From the NCBI RefSeq assembly GCF_053078305.1, contig NZ_CP166879.1: a stretch of 64,000 nucleotides of DNA, one strand, 5' to 3'. Position numbers and translations under genes: made by a program. Below the pieces are notes generated by a model that was not told the origin of the DNA, did no database searches, and saw only the letters and a program-made list of their open reading frames with translations. This document shows, in pieces, positions 7,097 to 16,270 of the stretch (positions are counted from its first letter, which is position 1; every line of letters starts with the position of its first letter).

Positions 7097-7774
7097 TCAC
7101 CAGTTACCGTAAGGATAAGTTTTATCTTTGATAAATTCCTTAATATCTTCATCATATCCATATGTGAAATCACTTTTAGTAACCCCCTTACACATATTCA
7201 TTTTATCACCCGATACTGTAGTAATTTTAGCATCCAACTGAGGTACCACCGGATTACCGCGATCTCCCAGCCAGACTCTTACCTTCCCTTCAGGTGCCAG
7301 ACCAATAATCATCGTTGAACGATAATAGGTTTCGTTCCAGCGGTTGTCTGTGTAAGGCGTAACCATCTGCTCCCAGGTTCCTTTTTTAAAAAAAATCAGA
7401 GTTTCATAACTCTTTTTATCAATTATCGAATCCCAGCAAAAACGCAACATCAGAGGTAATGCTTTCCCCTTGTTATAATACGACTCAGTCGCGCCCAGAT
7501 GCTCATTCCAGCGCCCTACACTGACCTGACTCGGTCTTGTGGTATCAAGATACTGATAAGTCGTCTTATAACCTTCCCCGTCCACCATCAATGCCTGAGT
7601 GGCCAGCGCAGGCAGAGCCTTTGGATAAATAAAGAGAAATTTCCATTCATCATAGGGTAATTTTTTATAACCCCATTCAGTCTTATCCGAATCAGCATAC
7701 TGTGAGCTAACAGAATTACACCCAGTTAACAATGCCAATAATGGTGCGATAAAAATGATTTTATCTCTGGTCAT
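7097..7774 (-). CDS. tli1: lipoprotein, putative Tli1-type immunity protein for the adjacent lipase effector
   Basis: 225 aa; signal peptide with lipobox LLTGC; immediately downstream of the DUF2235 effector, the usual effector-immunity order. Confidence 0.55.
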   Translation of the reverse strand: MTRDKIIFIAPLLALLTGCNSVSSQYADSDKTEWGYKKLPYDEWKFLFIYPKALPALATQALMVDGEGYKTTYQYLDTTRPSQVSVGRWNEHLGATESYYNKGKALPLMLRFCWDSIIDKKSYETLIFFKKGTWEQMVTPYTDNRWNETYYRSTMIIGLAPEGKVRVWLGDRGNPVVPQLDAKITTVSGDKMNMCKGVTKSDFTYGYDEDIKEFIKDKTYPYGNW

Positions 7775-7793: not shown

Positions 7794-9476
7794 TTAAACA
7801 CCAGACATCATAACTTTAGTATTTTTTACTGCGTTATCATTCAATCGCTGCTGATCATCCATGTACCATACAGAACGAATCCAGCGATCATTTGGTTTAT
7901 TCGGAAAAACGAACGCCTTATTACCTTTAGGACCAAAGCGATGGATAAAAATCTCTCCCGTTGTAGGATCCACCCATAAATTACCATCAGACTCAATATT
8001 CCAGTTGGCAGAACAATGGGTGTATTTTCCGATAATATACAACTCTTCCTCAGTAAAAGCCTGAGGCTCTTGCCCCAAACGTACCGCTTTTCCCTGAGCA
8101 ATGGCTTTATCAACAAAAGGAATTAATTCAGGAGATAAATTCATATCTGGATTTTTGGGGTCAATTGGAGCAAACAATACCCCTGCTTCCTGAGCAGCAT
8201 CCAGCATCACACGCAGGCAAACATTAGCCCAGTCATTAGGTACTGCCATACGCTCAAAAAATACTGCGGCTCCCACCTGCTTTTGTATCACGCCAGCCCG
8301 ACGTTGATTGCTGTTGTTCACACCTACGGAACGAATTTTGGTGGTTAGTTTTCCATGAGGCAAAATATGTTTTAAGGCTGGCAGAGTCATCAACATTTTT
8401 CTGGCTTGCTCTGCATTACGGTATACTCGCGTATCTGTTTCTCTGGTATCGTCACTGACAATTTCAAATGCCGGGCAACTCAGAAACAGACTTTCATTTT
8501 CCTGCAGAGGTGAACCTACCGGATTGTAACCACCTCCAATATCTGAATGCGCCCCTGGTAAAGCCAGTTCGGGCCACATACCTTTAATACTGTTCAGGCT
8601 GAAATTATATCGGTATTCATTCATTGCAGTAATCTGGAAAACTTTCTTCGCGATGGAAGGACGCAATTCCAGCTTTACTCCCGGGTTGCTACGTCCATTA
8701 ATATCGAAGAAATTACTGATTCCACCAATAGCTGCGACAGTATCAAAAAGCCCCAGAAAACGGACTTCACCCGAAGGTTTACCATCATAAAAATCGCCTC
8801 TGAGCCCTTTAGCAATAGCTCTGGCTATAGCAGGATCCTGTTCCATAACCCGATTAGCAAAGTGCCTTGCCGCCGCTGCTCCCCGGCTAAAACCAAAAAC
8901 ATCAAACTGGATTTTTGCGATACAAAAATCAGGATTTAAATTGAACCCCATAAATTCTGATAACGCTTGGGTGATTCGTTCCATTGCCTCGTCGGTTTTC
9001 GTCACCACACCTTCAAATATATCCAGAATACTGGTGCCTAATCCCATGCCAATGACTGAATCTGCTTCACCAGCCGCAGTCCCTATCCCGGAAATGTAAG
9101 TCTGAATTTGTGCTTCAACCTGACTTTCCAACAAAGTCTGATCTGCTACGTAAAGTGAATTTAGCCAGTGGATATTGGAATAATATCCACGATAACTGCC
9201 ATTCGAGATACTGTTCTTGTTAATTTCTTCAAGAAAGTCCTCACAGCTTTGTGCATCTTTTTGATTTACCCCCTGTCTGGCTGCACTACACTCATTAAAT
9301 TTCATCAGACGAGATGCTGTATTCTCCCGATTGTTTCCGGTACCATCGAAAAATATACCAATGGTTAAAGTCACACCCCGCGCCGGTTTTTTCTTTGCAA
9401 CAACAACTTTCCAGTCATTATGAATACTGGTTTTATGGGTGGCATCTGTTACATCATATCCCTGATATTTTGTCAT
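7794..9476 (-). CDS. tle1: T6SS phospholipase effector, Tle1 family (DUF2235 alpha/beta hydrolase)
   Basis: 560 aa; GxSxG motif GFSRG; directly downstream of vgrG with ATGA overlap; matches the vgrG-tle1-tli1 layout described for EAEC sci-1. Confidence 0.7.
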   Translation of the reverse strand: MTKYQGYDVTDATHKTSIHNDWKVVVAKKKPARGVTLTIGIFFDGTGNNRENTASRLMKFNECSAARQGVNQKDAQSCEDFLEEINKNSISNGSYRGYYSNIHWLNSLYVADQTLLESQVEAQIQTYISGIGTAAGEADSVIGMGLGTSILDIFEGVVTKTDEAMERITQALSEFMGFNLNPDFCIAKIQFDVFGFSRGAAAARHFANRVMEQDPAIARAIAKGLRGDFYDGKPSGEVRFLGLFDTVAAIGGISNFFDINGRSNPGVKLELRPSIAKKVFQITAMNEYRYNFSLNSIKGMWPELALPGAHSDIGGGYNPVGSPLQENESLFLSCPAFEIVSDDTRETDTRVYRNAEQARKMLMTLPALKHILPHGKLTTKIRSVGVNNSNQRRAGVIQKQVGAAVFFERMAVPNDWANVCLRVMLDAAQEAGVLFAPIDPKNPDMNLSPELIPFVDKAIAQGKAVRLGQEPQAFTEEELYIIGKYTHCSANWNIESDGNLWVDPTTGEIFIHRFGPKGNKAFVFPNKPNDRWIRSVWYMDDQQRLNDNAVKNTKVMMSGV

Positions 9477-11992
9477 TCTGTTTCTCCATGAATTTTTACC
9501 TTCCCAAACTCAACTTTTACTACTGACGGAATGGAGGTGTTGACTGGCGCTGTTTTACCATTTTCATCGGTGATCCCCTGTAGAATATCACCTTCAGCCG
9601 TTGTTAATCGATAAGGCGTCGAAGGTTGCGGCACTCCCGCTTCATCGGTAAGAATAAAACCGCCACCAAACCCTCGCGGCATTTCAACAGACGCAATATC
9701 AAGACTTGTTGGTCCCATCTTCTGCATATTCGTGCTTTTTAACAGGATCTGTCCCGGGCATCCCAGCTCAATATTTCCACCGCTTAGTTTGATATAAGCT
9801 CCACCACATGCCAGTATCAGTTCCTGATTAGCAGAAACAGTCACTTTGCCCTCAGAACTTTGAATATCAAGATTCTGTTGGGAACTCATTGACAAATCGT
9901 CACTTTGAGCCTGAATATTTACCCGCCCTTTTGCTGCTAACAGTTGCATCCCCTGGTTTCTGCTCAACAGGCTAACAGCACCTTCTGCTACAACTGTAAA
10001 TGACTGCCCGGCACTAATATCAGTGTTATCTCCCGACATTATGCCCACGCTTTCACTACCCGAAGCAATTCGTAACGCCCGTGCACTAACCATGCCAATC
10101 CCATCAGGAGCATGCAACAGCATTCCCGGCGCAGTGAGATCTGTTAGCGATGAATTCAACCGTTGCTGACAACTTATATCTCCCTGAGTAGCATTTGCAG
10201 CAGTTGCGGCCTTCGCCATACTTCGGGCCAGAGATAATGCCAGCTCCAGTTGGCGGATAGCTTCATTCATATCCAGCATCTTTCCTTGTGCCTGAGGCTG
10301 CATATCTGCACTGATAAATATTCCTTTTCCTCCCCGGATACTTATCCAGTCATCAGTCCTCAGCTCAGCGCCTTCTCCCCTGAGTTTCCGGGAGGCATTA
10401 ACGTTATGACCAAGATTAAGTTGTGTCTTACCGCCAAACTCGGTACTGATCTTGATATGCTCCTCACCGCGTTTGTCCTCCATCCGCAACTTGTTATTTG
10501 CCGGCGTACGGATAACATTGCGCGTACCGTTCTTATCGGTAACGTGATCAACATGACGTGAATCATGCAGGGCATGCGCGATATAGGGGCGATCCGGATC
10601 ACCTTCCTCAAAGGCAATGGCCACTTCCGTTCCCTGAATCAGCGGAAAATGAAAACCATAAGCATCACCACTGTAGGGTTTGGCCAGACGTACCGGCATG
10701 CTTTCCTGTCCCGGATTTTTATCATCACGGTCAGCATCAAATTTCACCCGGTACATACCTGATGCATCCTGCCAGGCGTAGATATCCCCTTCTTTTGCAC
10801 TGGTCACACGGGCCGTCATGGTACCGGTAACTTTCGGACGCGGCAGTAAAGGAGGACGCCAGCAGATAACTTCACTGTAAGGAACGCCCTTCAGTACAAC
10901 CTGCAGGGCATCCTTGCGACTTGCAGAAAAACCGACACAGGTAAGCAACACCGGATTGCGCAGCAGCGCAGGCAACGTCGGCGGAAGACTGTCGGTGATA
11001 GTCAGAACCTGAGCAGGTGCCAGCGTGGCGTCTGTACTGTTGCCGGTTATCCGCACCTGCTCCGCCAGATAACGTTCATGACCAAGGCGGGCATAAAAAT
11101 TGGCCGTCTCCGGCACCGGGTCGATTTTATCCCCCCGTTCCAGATGACGGAAATGGTAGTGGTACACCTCACCATAGTTAATTCCGTCACCATCACCATG
11201 CGTCATGTCTGCCGGGGCGGACTGCAACAGATATTGTGCTTCACGATGGTTATAAGCCTTTGTGGTGACACTGGCCTCTGCCACATTGTGCGTCACATTC
11301 AGCCCCCACACTGAATCCGCTCTGTTATCATTCATTCCGGACGGACTGTTTATCGCCAGCGTCTTATCAAACGTCAGCGCAGCCTGGCTGTCACCAAAAT
11401 GCACTACTTCCGTCTGCGTGTCCGGTTGCAGGGTGAAAAAATAAAAAATCCCCACTTCAGCCAGCAAACGCTGAATAAATTGCAGGTCACTTTCCTGATA
11501 CTGGTTAATTTGTTCACGCTTCGGATACGTTTTTTTGAGACGGAACTCAAACTCCCAGCCTTTCAGGCCGTGCTCCTGGAGAACCTCTGTCACCACCTCC
11601 GGCACCGATTTGTTAACGAAAAATCGGTGAGAACGATGCTGCCTGTCCAGTAGTTTAATAAATGGTTCCAGTATCACCTGGTATTTTGCCTGGTCGGCGG
11701 AGCCCGATATACGACGAAAATCTGTAATGACACCATGTACTACTTTCTGGCTCACCTGCTCCTTAAGCCCTCCCGTACCCATTGTAAATGTGGCTGATTT
11801 ACGCAGCAGCAGCCCGGCATCCAGGTCGTTGTCAGTACTGGTAAAATTGATGATGTAATAATAGGTCTGACTCATCTCCTCCCTGCCGCTGAAATGCTCA
11901 ACATCCAGTGGTGACGGGCAGGAGGGAATAATTAAATGGTAACGATTCAGGGAAGCAGAGATAGTTTTTGAAAGTGTATCTGTCAGACTCAT
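9473..11992 (-). CDS. vgrG: T6SS spike protein VgrG (TssI) with C-terminal extension
   Basis: 839 aa; VgrG-like N-terminal gp27/gp5 architecture; C-terminal tail beyond the spike core; start codon overlaps next gene. Confidence 0.9.
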   Translation of the reverse strand: MSLTDTLSKTISASLNRYHLIIPSCPSPLDVEHFSGREEMSQTYYYIINFTSTDNDLDAGLLLRKSATFTMGTGGLKEQVSQKVVHGVITDFRRISGSADQAKYQVILEPFIKLLDRQHRSHRFFVNKSVPEVVTEVLQEHGLKGWEFEFRLKKTYPKREQINQYQESDLQFIQRLLAEVGIFYFFTLQPDTQTEVVHFGDSQAALTFDKTLAINSPSGMNDNRADSVWGLNVTHNVAEASVTTKAYNHREAQYLLQSAPADMTHGDGDGINYGEVYHYHFRHLERGDKIDPVPETANFYARLGHERYLAEQVRITGNSTDATLAPAQVLTITDSLPPTLPALLRNPVLLTCVGFSASRKDALQVVLKGVPYSEVICWRPPLLPRPKVTGTMTARVTSAKEGDIYAWQDASGMYRVKFDADRDDKNPGQESMPVRLAKPYSGDAYGFHFPLIQGTEVAIAFEEGDPDRPYIAHALHDSRHVDHVTDKNGTRNVIRTPANNKLRMEDKRGEEHIKISTEFGGKTQLNLGHNVNASRKLRGEGAELRTDDWISIRGGKGIFISADMQPQAQGKMLDMNEAIRQLELALSLARSMAKAATAANATQGDISCQQRLNSSLTDLTAPGMLLHAPDGIGMVSARALRIASGSESVGIMSGDNTDISAGQSFTVVAEGAVSLLSRNQGMQLLAAKGRVNIQAQSDDLSMSSQQNLDIQSSEGKVTVSANQELILACGGAYIKLSGGNIELGCPGQILLKSTNMQKMGPTSLDIASVEMPRGFGGGFILTDEAGVPQPSTPYRLTTAEGDILQGITDENGKTAPVNTSIPSVVKVEFGKVKIHGETE

Positions 11993-12070: not shown

Positions 12071-12298
12071 TTACTGATAATCATCCCATTCATCGTAAAT
12101 ATATGCATATGCAAATCGATACATCAGATAACCGACAAAAAATAACGCAACAGAGAGCCCTCCCCACAGATATTTAAATTCAGCAGATGAGAGAAAAAAG
12201 AACCAGACTGTAAATACAATACCCGACGCACCTAACCCCATACCTGCGCCACGGATAAATCGGGAAAGCATTATAAGTAATGTTCTTTTTATCTTCAT
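12071..12298 (-). CDS. small membrane protein, unknown function
   Basis: 75 aa from the ATG at 12298, which overlaps the upstream gene stop (ATGA); two predicted hydrophobic helices. Confidence 0.4.
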   Translation of the reverse strand: MKIKRTLLIMLSRFIRGAGMGLGASGIVFTVWFFFLSSAEFKYLWGGLSVALFFVGYLMYRFAYAYIYDEWDDYQ

Positions 12299-12936
12299 AA
12301 ACCACCGAAAAAATATTCGCATATCCGGTCAAACTCAGCCGAATTTCGGTCTGCGACAATACAGGCTCGTTCAAACGGGCGCACAATATCTTCAACAAGA
12401 AAGTACAAAAGATCCAAATCCCCCTGAGCTTTCAGCTTATCATGCAACACCGGATTTCTGTCTTTCAGAAAACGGGATGTGTAAATCGCACGCGATGTCT
12501 CTGCGCCAACAGATAATAACAACCCGGCAAAACTCCCTGCAAAAAAAGCAGCCAGCCCTCTGGATACCAGAACCTCTCCCAGTTTAACCCCGGTCAATTC
12601 AGCAAATGCCATTCTACCTGCCAGATCTCCTGAAACGTTCTTCACAATGGAGCCTGTTTTTTCCATATTGATCCGGGATACAAAGTCTTCAAGACAAATA
12701 CTGATAATTTTCCCAATAATATCACGGCTGAAAATGCCTTTTTCTACCAGTCTGGCCATTCTGAATTTGTCATTCTGGTTTTCCCGCCTATGCCCGGTAT
12801 CTATAAAATCATATCCCATATAACCGAGACTGACTGGCAAAGATATGAGTCCCTTCCCGACGGCCCCCAGAAACCCATCCCCATTAATATTTACGGCCTC
12901 CAGCATATCCCGGGCAATTTCTTTAGCACTGTCCAT
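12295..12936 (-). CDS. hypothetical protein between clpV and vgrG
   Basis: 213 aa from the ATG at 12936 preceded by AGGAAA; 14-nt overlap with the clpV 3' end; no family recognised. Confidence 0.45.
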   Translation of the reverse strand: MDSAKEIARDMLEAVNINGDGFLGAVGKGLISLPVSLGYMGYDFIDTGHRRENQNDKFRMARLVEKGIFSRDIIGKIISICLEDFVSRINMEKTGSIVKNVSGDLAGRMAFAELTGVKLGEVLVSRGLAAFFAGSFAGLLLSVGAETSRAIYTSRFLKDRNPVLHDKLKAQGDLDLLYFLVEDIVRPFERACIVADRNSAEFDRICEYFFGGL

Positions 12937-15610
12937 ATATGCTTTCCTGCGGATAATCGCTATTGATTCCATCAAACGCTATCACAATACCATCCTCATC
13001 ATTCCACGTCAGAGACAGGTACGTCGGATGCTGTCTGGCAGCAAGATAGCTGAGCAACTGCCGGCTCAGTACCGGCAGCAGTTGCTGGTTCAGCAGACTC
13101 TCCACATTCCGGGCGCCCGTATCCGGCAGCAGGCAGGCGGATGTCAGGGCATCGTACACACGTTCATCAACCGATGTGCTCAGCCCATAATGGCAGTGCA
13201 GGCGTTCGCAGACCTGTGCAAGCTTCATCTCCACAATGGTGCGCATGGCAGACTGCGTCAGCGGACGGTAAATCACGGTCCGGAAACGGGCAAGCAGTGC
13301 TGGCTGGAAGTGGTCGCGCAGCAGTGGACGGATAAGCTCATGCAGCTCCGATTCCGTTGTCTCCGGCTTTTCGCTAAGTTGCTGCATCAGAAGGTCACTG
13401 CCCAGATTGGAGGTCATCAGAATGACCGTATTACGGAAGTCAATTTCACGCCCCTCACCGTCGCGCATAAAGCCCCGGTCAAACACCTGGTAGAACAGAT
13501 TCAGCACATCCCGGTGGGCCTTTTCCACTTCATCCAGCAGCACCACGCTGTAAGGGCGTTTACGCACAGCCTCCGTCAGAATACCGCCCTGACCGTATCC
13601 CACGTACCCGGGCGGTGACCCCTTAAGCTGGGAAACCGTATGGGGCTCCTGGTATTCCGACAGATTGATGGTAATCAGTGATTTTTCGCCGCCGTACATC
13701 ACGTCTGCCAGCGCCAGTGCCGTTTCGGTTTTTCCCACACCACTGGGACCGACCAGCAGGAACACCCCCTGGGGGCCGTTACCGGATGTCAGACCCGTTT
13801 TCGCCGCACGCAGACGCTGCGCAATGGATTCCAGTGCCACGTCCTGTCCGACCACCCGTCTGCCGATATCCTTTTCCAGATGCAGCAGTTCCGTCTGTTC
13901 GTCCTTCATCAGGGAAGATAACGGCACCCCGGTCCGGTCCGCGACCACACCGGCAACGGTGCGTACGTCAACATCCACACTGAGCAGGGGCTGATTCTGC
14001 TGAATGTCGTGCAGTGCCTGCTGCAGGTGATGTGTCTCACTCTGGCGGGAAATATCGCTGCGGCTTTCAAGTAACTCACCGGTGAGTTCGCACTCCCGGG
14101 CGTACTGCTGCTCCAGGTCATCACGTGCTGTCATCAGCTCGTTCTCTTCCTGCTCAATGGCAGACAGACGTTCGCCGTGATTCTGATGACCAACGGCAAT
14201 ATCTTCCAGCAGTGCCTGTTTTTCCATACCGAGGGAAGCGAGCTGTGAACGGATACGGGTCAGCTGTTCCGGCACCGTGTCGAGGCTCATACGCACACGG
14301 GCAGCAGCAGTATCGAGCAGGTCAACAGCCTTGTCCGGTAACTGGCGTTCTGTCAGATAACGGCGCGACAGCGTGACGGCAGCACGTACCGCCTCATCGG
14401 TGATATGCACGTTATGATGTTCCGCATAACGGGATTTCAGGGAGCGCAGCATCAGACAGGCCGTCTCATCATCCGGCTCGTCCACTCTGACCATCTGAAA
14501 ACGCCGCTCCAGAGCCGCGTCACGTTCCAGGTATTGTTTGTACTCAGACCAGGTGGTGGCGGCAATGGTACGCAGTTCACCCCGCGCCAGCGCAGGCTTC
14601 AGCAGGTTGGCCGCATCCGCGCCGCCGGCCTGATTACCGGCCCCGATAAGGGTATGGGCTTCATCTATAAACAACAGTACAGGAGCCGGTGACTGCTGCA
14701 CGGCATCAATCACGTTTTTCAGGCGCTGTTCAAATTCACCCTTCACGCCGGCACCGGCCTGCAGCAGGCCGAGGTCAAGGGTGCGCAGGGTGACGGGTCT
14801 GAGTGATTCCGGTACGTTACCTTCCGCAATACGCAGGGCGAGCCCTTCCACCAGAGCCGTTTTCCCCACACCAGGGTCCCCCACCAGAATCGGGTTGTTC
14901 TTGCGGCGGCGGGAGAGAATATCCACCATCTGACGGATTTCCGTATCGCGTCCCGATACCGGGTCAATTTTCCCCTCTCTCGCGCTGGCCGTGATGTCCC
15001 GGGTGAATTTATCCAGAGCACTCTGTAACACAGGCGGCAGGTCACCTGACGGTATACCCGCCGTATCCGCACCGACGGGACGCCCGATAAAGGTCACATT
15101 GTCTCCCTGAGGCAGCACAGGCTCTGCATCCTGTAATCTCTCCGGACACTCATCAGACTGCGCATCCAGCAGCGGGGACAGACGCTGCAACTGGCTATGA
15201 CTCAGTGTCAGCAGCGGCCACAGCCCGTCACAGCGAACCAGGTGCGGATTTTCCGTCAGGGCACCCAGCAGATGCACGCTGCGGATATGTTCTTCTCCCT
15301 GTAATGAGGCCACCATCCAGGCCTGTTTCAGCAGGGCATTCAGGGACGGCGCAAGCTGCGGGCAGCTGCGTACGCTACGGGGCTGGTTATCCAGCCAGCC
15401 GAGCAGCGACTGCCATATCGCGTCCATATCCCAGTCATAACGCCGGCCCAGCACGGTAAGGTCTCCTTCGCCCTGCTCCAGCAGTTTCAGTAACCAGTGC
15501 TCCGGGGTGATTTCCGCATGGGCCCGGGTCTGGCAAAGGGAGGCTGCGCCTTCCAGTGCACGGGCACAGTAATGATTAAGACGGCGTAACAGAGCTGCCG
15601 GATTTTCCAT
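12923..15610 (-). CDS. clpV: T6SS AAA+ ATPase ClpV (TssH)
   Basis: Two Walker A motifs ([16 protein letters not shown]), ClpB-like N-domain and size; track start at 15619 is GTG, the in-frame ATG at 15610 is preferred. Confidence 0.9.
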
Positions 15611-15778
15611 GTTATTCACTCACTGTCAGAAGACCTTCAGACACGCTACCGCCCTTCGCCATAACCCGGGCGCATCAGGTCTGTGTTCAGGACTGAGAAT
15701 TCTTTCTTCAGCACCCGCCAGCAGATACTGAAGAAAAAAGAAAAATGACGGACAGGATACCCTGCCCGTCCGGGAGAA

Positions 15779-16270
15779 TTACGCAGTGGTACGTTCATTC
15801 CACGCGTCAGAATGAATGATGTTACCGTCCTTATAAGTCCAGGTGATTTTCTCGTAGCGCAGCTCCACCTGCTCAAGGTGGTTATGCTTCTCGTAGGCGG
15901 GATTCTTGATGTCGTGCATGACCGGGTTAACCTTCACCACCTTCACGTTCTCAAGCTTCGTATTGAAATACTCCACTTCCTGACCGGCATCATTGATTCT
16001 GTACCACTTAAACTCAGCAGACTTCAGGGTCTGCCCCGTGGTCACCGCCTTGTAAAGGTAGGGGCTGGAAGAATCAATTTCCTTGGTAAACAGGAACGGC
16101 GTGTGAATACGGGTACCGGTCAGCTTACCGGTATTGTTATCCGTCGGAATGTAAAGGCAGTGCTCCTGAGCCACCACTTCAATACTGCCCTCACGGTCCT
16201 TCACATCCACGGAGCCTTTAATATCCGCTCCGCCATCATCCTGCAGCCACAGATAAACAGGAATTGCCAT
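15779..16270 (-). CDS. hcp: Hcp (TssD) tube protein
   Basis: 163 aa from the internal ATG at 16270 (MAIPVYLWLQDDGGADIKGS...), typical Hcp length and N-terminus; the longer track ORF carries an implausible basic leader. Confidence 0.85.
   Translation of the reverse strand: MAIPVYLWLQDDGGADIKGSVDVKDREGSIEVVAQEHCLYIPTDNNTGKLTGTRIHTPFLFTKEIDSSSPYLYKAVTTGQTLKSAEFKWYRINDAGQEVEYFNTKLENVKVVKVNPVMHDIKNPAYEKHNHLEQVELRYEKITWTYKDGNIIHSDAWNERTTA

Follow-up and report, generated by a model that had tools for sequence, protein, structure and literature searches.

The stretch of DNA analysed here, referred to as the window, comprises 64,000 nucleotides of contig NZ_CP166879.1 (assembly GCF_053078305.1) from an Escherichia coli chromosome. 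Two overlapping genes lie in it between two type VI secretion system (T6SS) genes, clpV and vgrG, and their products show homology to the effector Ssp6 and the immunity protein Sip6 of Serratia marcescens. The first gene (12295..12936, minus strand), translated from an ATG at 12936 to a TGA at 12297-12295, encodes a protein of 213 residues and 23.5 kDa. The second (12071..12298, minus strand), translated from an ATG at 12298 to a TAA at 12073-12071, encodes a protein of 75 residues. The stop codon of the former and the start codon of the latter share the four nucleotides ATGA (junction GGT GGT TTA TGA AGA), and the overlap and position of the pair are as described in an earlier sequence-only reading of this DNA, to which the minus strand can now be added. 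Upstream, the last 14 nucleotides of clpV (tssH in the Prokaryotic Genome Annotation Pipeline, PGAP; 12923..15619, minus strand), which encodes the sheath-recycling ATPase and ends at 12923, overlap the start of the 213-residue frame. Downstream, a spacer of 78 nucleotides separates the 75-residue frame from the start, at 11992, of the spike gene vgrG (9473..11992, minus strand; Pfam and NCBIfam matches). The pair is co-oriented with the operon, and its overlapping frames suggest translational coupling. Longer starts at TTG 12975 (226 residues) for the larger protein and at ATG 12322 (83 residues) for the smaller one were rejected, as homologues and PGAP models use the shorter starts; the N termini of homologues, MDSAKEIA... 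for the large protein and M(K/N)IK... for the small one, back this choice. Both open reading frames (ORFs) are labelled 'hypothetical protein' by PGAP in most records.

The 213-residue protein aligns with authentic S. marcescens Ssp6 over 207 residues, with 42% identity and 63% positives (E=8e-57), and is 46% identical to a second Serratia allele. The authentic Ssp6 and Sip6 sequences were recovered by an exact-match metagenome scan with the ssp6/sip6 junction taken from the cloning primers of the original authors. The scan led to a contig (L055) with a 215-residue ORF (MAKGAKEI...VDVDKVKR...FEKVSK*) and a 67-residue ORF (MKVFSVLISR...KFHDGV*) overlapping by 4 nucleotides, which agree with all primer-derived tags of SMDB11_4673 and SMDB11_4672A of S. 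marcescens Db10; a scan of viral contigs for the same junction returned nothing. A 215-residue Serratia protein, P0300, was rejected as Ssp6 itself, the primer sequences showing it to be a close allele only. An exact-sequence look-up of the homologue from Serratia PRI-2C (P0012) gave no record, and the bridge to the published list of family members was made instead through Yersinia aleksiciae 159. The entry 'Yersinia aleksiciae 159 1' of Supplementary Data 1 (NZ_CP011975.1:1174387-1175025, HMMER score 314.6; Mariano et al. 2019, PMC6889166) is exactly the gene contained in our locus L019, whose product and the window protein share 57% identity along the whole length (E=9e-86). Moreover, an E. 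coli orthologue from strain MEW (WP_180562696.1, 98.5% identical) is named 'Ssp6 family T6SS pore-forming effector' by PGAP. The relationship of the small protein to Sip6 is weak in pairwise BLASTP (22% identity, E=0.003) and is seen more clearly with a profile of 25 members of its family, which matches authentic Sip6 over 61 columns (hhalign 95%, E=3.8e-8) and the second Serratia Sip6 allele (hhalign 97.2%, E=3.2e-11). Every Ssp6 homologue is reported to be followed by a small ORF (PMC6889166), a place occupied in the window by the 75-residue ORF with its ATGA overlap. By homology, from which its function is inferred, the window pair is assigned to the Ssp6/Sip6 family.

An alignment of 40 family members of the large protein contains 31 invariant positions (mean column identity of 69%), and all family-invariant residues are present in the window protein. 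Although the sequence-only reading described this protein as soluble-looking, it is not plainly so: around residues 122–146, a segment that is hydrophobic and rich in glycine reaches a Kyte–Doolittle value of 1.77 over 19 residues, the highest of the protein, and the invariant residues include G134, G138, G144, E146, S148 and R149 together with an IYT-R motif. The same reading had proposed structure prediction as a check. With the family alignment as input, AlphaFold2 (AF2) gives an all-alpha model of 11 helices with a predicted local distance difference test (pLDDT) score of 74.8 and a predicted template modelling score (pTM) of 0.74, in which helices 119–134 and 140–160 are linked by a low-confidence loop. 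Residues 119–160 (12457..12582, minus strand; GEVLVSRGLAAFFAGSFAGLLLSVGAETSRAIYTSR) form in this model a helix-loop-helix containing the best-conserved stretch of the protein, which is also its hydrophobic, glycine-rich part; this predicted hairpin is compatible with membrane insertion and is a candidate membrane-inserting element. Neither protein has a match in Pfam, NCBIfam r20 or PADLOC, and no Pfam family is found at E<=1 for either of them or for the 40 family members of the large protein. A profile search of Protein Data Bank (PDB) sequences with the 213-residue family returned noise matches only, and comparison of the model with known structures gave no fold match to the colicin pore domains, which form a ten-helix globin-like bundle, or to others. 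The PDB result agrees with the authors of the Ssp6 work, who state that no structural homologue of the family can be recognised (PMC6889166). The 213-residue protein thus has the features expected of the Ssp6 family, whose members are small (about 210–220 residues), stand-alone, mainly alpha-helical and without a known domain.

The 75-residue protein shows two hydrophobic helices in its hydropathy profile, and its AF2 model (pLDDT 89.7) is a hairpin of helices 3–36 and 42–67, which bears out its earlier description as a two-helix membrane protein. Its size and topology are those of Sip6-type proteins (about 65–75 residues, two transmembrane helices), and it ends in an acidic tail, YDEWDDYQ. 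Of the 35 E. coli RefSeq records that contain this small ORF, 21 seemingly lack an annotation for it: in 20 of them the match covers just one 'hypothetical protein', and in that of strain MEW the named effector only. In both such records that were translated (L002 15895-16119 and L043 6001-6228), the ORF is intact; missing annotation of this kind is typical of genes this small.

Purifying selection acts on both genes. In comparisons with orthologous loci, wherever the synonymous rate dS was not saturated, the ratio of non-synonymous to synonymous rates (dN/dS) is 0.07–0.12 for the 213-residue gene and 0.07–0.36 for the 75-residue gene. Their conservation in many enterobacterial genera and the low dN/dS values show that the two ORFs are not chance products. 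The large protein has 196 relatives at the level of 90% clusters, all of about 210–215 residues and essentially all unnamed, from Enterobacter, Klebsiella, Yersinia, Serratia, Kluyvera, Erwinia, Pantoea, Rahnella, Citrobacter, Salmonella and others. The small protein has 24 database relatives, and many more were found in other genomes as unannotated ORFs immediately following the large gene. Interrupted frames in close relatives, which the sequence-only reading had named as grounds for doubt, were not encountered: both frames are intact in every close relative translated, namely three other E. coli loci (L001, L002 and L043), the remaining E. coli records being compared with the window pair by DNA identity alone. 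The small protein diverges along with the large one, but faster, with 64–67% identity where the effector retains 73–75%, and 29–47% where the effector retains 57–69%; this much faster evolution implies that immunity is probably allele-specific.

The cluster that holds the pair is of the Sci-1 type (T6SS-1) of enteroaggregative E. coli (EAEC). Around the pair are found tssB, tssC, tssK, tssL, a tagL gene of the OmpA family, hcp (15779..16270, minus strand, upstream of clpV) and clpV on one side, and vgrG, tle1, tli1, PAAR, tssM and tssA on the other. The cargo pair belonging to vgrG itself follows it directly, tle1 at 9476..7794 and tli1 at 7774..7097 (Tle1-EAEC and Tli1-EAEC in PGAP). The GC content is 43% for the pair, 58% for clpV, 49% for vgrG and 43% for tle1. 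A single tli1 (7097-7774) follows tle1 in the window, and two tandem tli1 genes are present in several otherwise collinear E. coli strains, 504239 and BR1220 among them (compare L002 10097-11595).

Among 5,426 complete E. coli genomes, 35 carry the pair, always on the chromosome, in single copy and at least 98.5% identical, and about 120 carry this type of clpV. The site between clpV and vgrG differs from strain to strain. In E. coli BR1220 (L044 5874-6976) it holds an unrelated 188-residue protein with an HExxH motif (HEMAH) and no Pfam match, together with a DUF7480 'putative T6SS immunity periplasmic lipoprotein'; the two probably correspond to the EAEC pair of EC042_4531/4532 type and resemble an effector–immunity pair that is metallopeptidase-like and uncharacterised. 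In E. coli DSM 103246 (L045) the slot is empty, with clpV overlapping vgrG, and a GH108 protein is encoded after vgrG. The slot is thus polymorphic in E. coli, containing this pair, another toxin–lipoprotein pair or nothing, which fits cargo rather than structural parts. Across genera, the pair directly follows clpV and precedes vgrG in 17 of 40 species-representative loci, vgrG lies downstream in 22 of the 40, and the 4-nucleotide overlap is kept in at least 12 loci; other family loci are unlinked to T6SS genes, as is Ssp6 itself.

A few of the loci collected are unusual in other respects. In E. coli 2012EL-2448 (L001), tssB is split by ISEc8, an IS1 follows vgrG, and tle1, tli1 and tssM are replaced by insertion sequence (IS) debris; the pair is 100% intact despite the degraded cluster. 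Locus L005 (CACSKA010000001.1), labelled Chryseobacterium sp. 18061, is a typical enterobacterial T6SS whose TssC and Hcp are 92% and 90% identical to those of E. coli, and Ssp6/Sip6-like genes also occur in L029 and L032, labelled as a Lachnospiraceae and a Bacillota metagenome-assembled genome. These non-proteobacterial labels likely reflect contamination, mislabelling or mis-binning rather than the true host range.

The small gene is often multiplied or decayed. Two to three tandem sip6-like genes are found in L008 (8920-9147), L010 (8893-9120), L011 (819-1616) and L012 (8639-9114), and frameshifted or deleted remnants of a first sip6-like copy in L016, L018 and L019 (about 8630-8890; Yersinia aleksiciae, Y. 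alsatica and Enterobacteriaceae RIT714). Such tandem copies and remnants are typical of immunity arrays. In Enterobacter cloacae DSM 26481 the second sip6-like copy is 82% identical to the E. coli 75-residue protein, compared with 44% for the cognate copy of that strain, and from its sequence it looks like an orphan immunity gene directed against the E. coli-type toxin.

A motif scan places an ops element that matches the consensus perfectly (GGCGGTAGCGTG; 15653-15642, minus strand) between hcp and clpV. It is the sole match in the 64 kb, where 0.09 would be expected by chance, and its position is that of ops1 in the EAEC sci-1 cluster. In EAEC, ops1 governs transcription of all genes downstream of hcp, and mutation of ops1 or loss of RfaH sharply lowered the signal of a reporter placed just after clpV. 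A scan of the coding strand for promoters and terminators found no terminator-like site within the pair and only one weak promoter-like match, at the start of vgrG. The pair is likely part of an RfaH-dependent transcription unit.

Taken as a whole, the pair is very probably an antibacterial T6SS effector–immunity module that belongs to the Ssp6/Sip6 family and occupies, as cargo, the clpV–vgrG slot of a Sci-1-type cluster. Ssp6 is a T6SS-secreted effector of small size, which is toxic from the periplasmic side, depolarizes the inner membrane and forms cation-selective pores in bilayers (PMC6889166). Its behaviour is consistent with that of an Hcp-dependent effector and it is active against Enterobacterales only, and Sip6 co-immunoprecipitates with it (PMC6889166). 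By analogy with Serratia, clpV, the E. coli pair and vgrG would be transcribed together downstream of the ops1/RfaH element, and the 23.5-kDa all-helical effector would remain soluble in the producing cell and be loaded into the Hcp tube. Hcp is the likely carrier of so small an effector, and the effector gene is genetically linked to it, being part of the T6SS operon, in which hcp lies two genes upstream of it. Once fired into the periplasm of a neighbouring enterobacterial cell, the effector would insert its hydrophobic glycine-rich hairpin into the inner membrane and may oligomerize into a small cation-selective pore, so that the membrane potential would collapse and growth would stop without lysis. 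The 75-residue two-helix membrane protein, translated from the ATGA start, would bind the incoming toxin directly and thereby protect sister cells.

Three observations call for caution. The paralogous pair SMDB11_0810/0809 of S. marcescens is silent under laboratory conditions and weakly toxic when its expression is forced; Sip6 was recovered in the outer-membrane fraction, an unexplained result for a protein with two transmembrane helices (PMC6889166); and the T6SS of one carrier strain, 2012EL-2448, is disrupted by IS elements. The behaviour of the Serratia paralogue and the persistence of an intact pair in 2012EL-2448 would also suit a silent or attenuated pair, no longer or only conditionally effective as a weapon and kept mainly as protection against the Ssp6-type toxins of neighbours, and orphan sip6-like copies elsewhere imply that immunity alone can be selected. 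We consider this explanation unlikely. The effector ORF is full length, retains every invariant residue and is under strong purifying selection (dN/dS of about 0.07–0.12), and a pair placed directly after clpV in the operon, with a consensus ops upstream, should be produced each time the secretion machine is.

The sequence-only reading had left open whether the pair was of the effector–immunity or the adaptor–immunity kind, and of these the former stands, on the grounds of the Ssp6 homology, the Sip6-type partner, the polymorphic slot and the tandem and orphan copies. That the 213-residue protein is instead an adaptor or chaperone for loading VgrG or Tle1, accompanied by an unrelated small membrane protein, is highly improbable. 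A position directly upstream of vgrG is indeed a frequent site of adaptor genes, but neither protein nor any of the 40 family members has a Pfam adaptor match, DUF4123/Tap-1, DUF1795/Eag and DUF2169 included; the large protein is homologous over its full length to a protein shown to be a toxin, and family members, Ssp6 among them, are found far from any vgrG. EAEC-type clusters with the same vgrG-tle1-tli1 arrangement but without the pair further imply that Tle1 loading is independent of it. A role as conserved parts of the T6SS, structural or accessory (Tag-type proteins), which the sequence-only reading had named among the findings that would overturn its proposal, is credible to an equally slight degree. 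The recurrence of the pair in the same slot of 17 of the 40 species-representative enterobacterial loci, and frames overlapping those of core genes in a manner suggestive of translational coupling, would be compatible with such a role. However, the genes are not universal in these clusters: only 35 of the approximately 120 genomes with this clpV type have the pair, and the E. coli slot can be empty or hold an unrelated pair. In addition, the GC content is atypical of core genes, and the arrays contain duplicated or decayed copies of the small gene, as is typical of immunity genes.

Comparison with known systems is closest for Ssp6 (SMDB11_4673) and Sip6 (SMDB11_4672A) of S. marcescens Db10. 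The effectors, of 213 residues in the window and 215 in Serratia, can be aligned end to end and share the motifs FPV..GY..YDF..T..R, SRAI(Y/H)TSR and G(D/N)LDLLYFLVE. The sip6 gene (204 bp) is likewise a tiny ORF encoding two transmembrane helices and overlaps the effector stop codon by 4 nucleotides (PMC6889166). The family has been published as restricted to Enterobacterales, which the E. coli host fits. The two systems differ in that ssp6 is unlinked to T6SS genes whereas the window pair lies inside the main cluster, that Sip6 has 67 residues and the window immunity protein 75 with its acidic tail, and that the host T6SS is of the EAEC Sci-1 type. At 22% identity between the window immunity protein and Sip6, cross-protection is unlikely. 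The second Serratia pair, SMDB11_0810/0809, was compared by primer-derived fragments alone. It has the same family membership and architecture, and these fragments (…DMADAVNIDS…) resemble DMLEAVNINGDG of the window protein; unlike this unexpressed and weakly toxic pair, the window pair is embedded in a T6SS operon. In the Yersinia aleksiciae 159 locus (L019) the genes are arranged identically, hcp – clpV – ssp6-like – sip6-like – vgrG, whereas the in-cluster copy of Enterobacter cloacae EcWSU1 lies between tssC and hcp, a different hotspot (PMC6889166). Earlier work already noted that clinical isolates of E. coli have homologues and that other genera have copies inside the cluster (PMC6889166), and a Salmonella survey found Ssp6-type toxins with the subtype i1 T6SS (PMC12994826). 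With Ssp4, Tse4, Tse5-CT, Tke5 and the colicin pore domains the window pair shares a presumed outcome, depolarization of the inner membrane from the periplasmic side countered by a membrane-embedded immunity protein. These are functional analogues and not relatives, as there is no sequence similarity in the PDB and no fold match.

The family and its mechanism are already published, and the advance made here is incremental. We found no publication that characterizes the E. coli pair, and the clpV–vgrG junction is not described as a recurrent slot in the main text or the supplementary table of PMC6889166. Mildly new are the direct assignment of both genes in a Sci-1-type cluster, the recurrence of the slot across genera, its polymorphism in E. 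coli and the arrays of orphan immunity genes.

Beyond Enterobacterales, an exhaustive profile search among 1.84 billion representatives yielded 152 clusters at 50% identity, nearly all of stand-alone proteins of 200–225 residues. A few significant but marginal matches are longer and have the Ssp6-like region at their C terminus (hhalign 96–97%), with a common '...DLDL(L/M)YFLVE...' motif: P0289 (L051 9001-10752), P0292, P0276 (L052 6001-7301) and P0273 (L053 6001-7280). Two of the longer matches contain eCIS_core (PF13699, a marker of contractile-injection-system cargo), one of them together with LysM, and another has an N-terminal PG_binding_1 domain. The contigs are GC-rich with haloarchaeon-like or planctomycete-like neighbouring genes, and two of the longer matches are followed by a small ORF with two predicted transmembrane helices, in one case overlapping by 4 nucleotides. 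It is possible, with a likelihood somewhat short of even, that the window pair represents the enterobacterial T6SS-borne branch of an older and wider cassette, consisting of a pore toxin plus a two-helix mini-immunity protein, that has been reused by other delivery routes. If so, the distant fusions would contradict the published restriction to Enterobacterales, and the module would be older and more widely deployed.

For E. coli itself, the assignment turns two 'hypothetical proteins' of the well-studied EAEC-type Sci-1 cluster into a specific and testable second antibacterial cargo beside Tle1/Tli1, and exposes an annotation gap for the 75-residue immunity gene in E. coli RefSeq records. Across enterobacterial genera, the clpV–vgrG junction emerges as a recurrent slot for the exchange of effectors. 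The predicted membrane-depolarizing cargo would be expected to hit fellow Enterobacterales only, which makes it of interest for how lineages of gut E. coli and Shiga toxin-producing E. coli compete.
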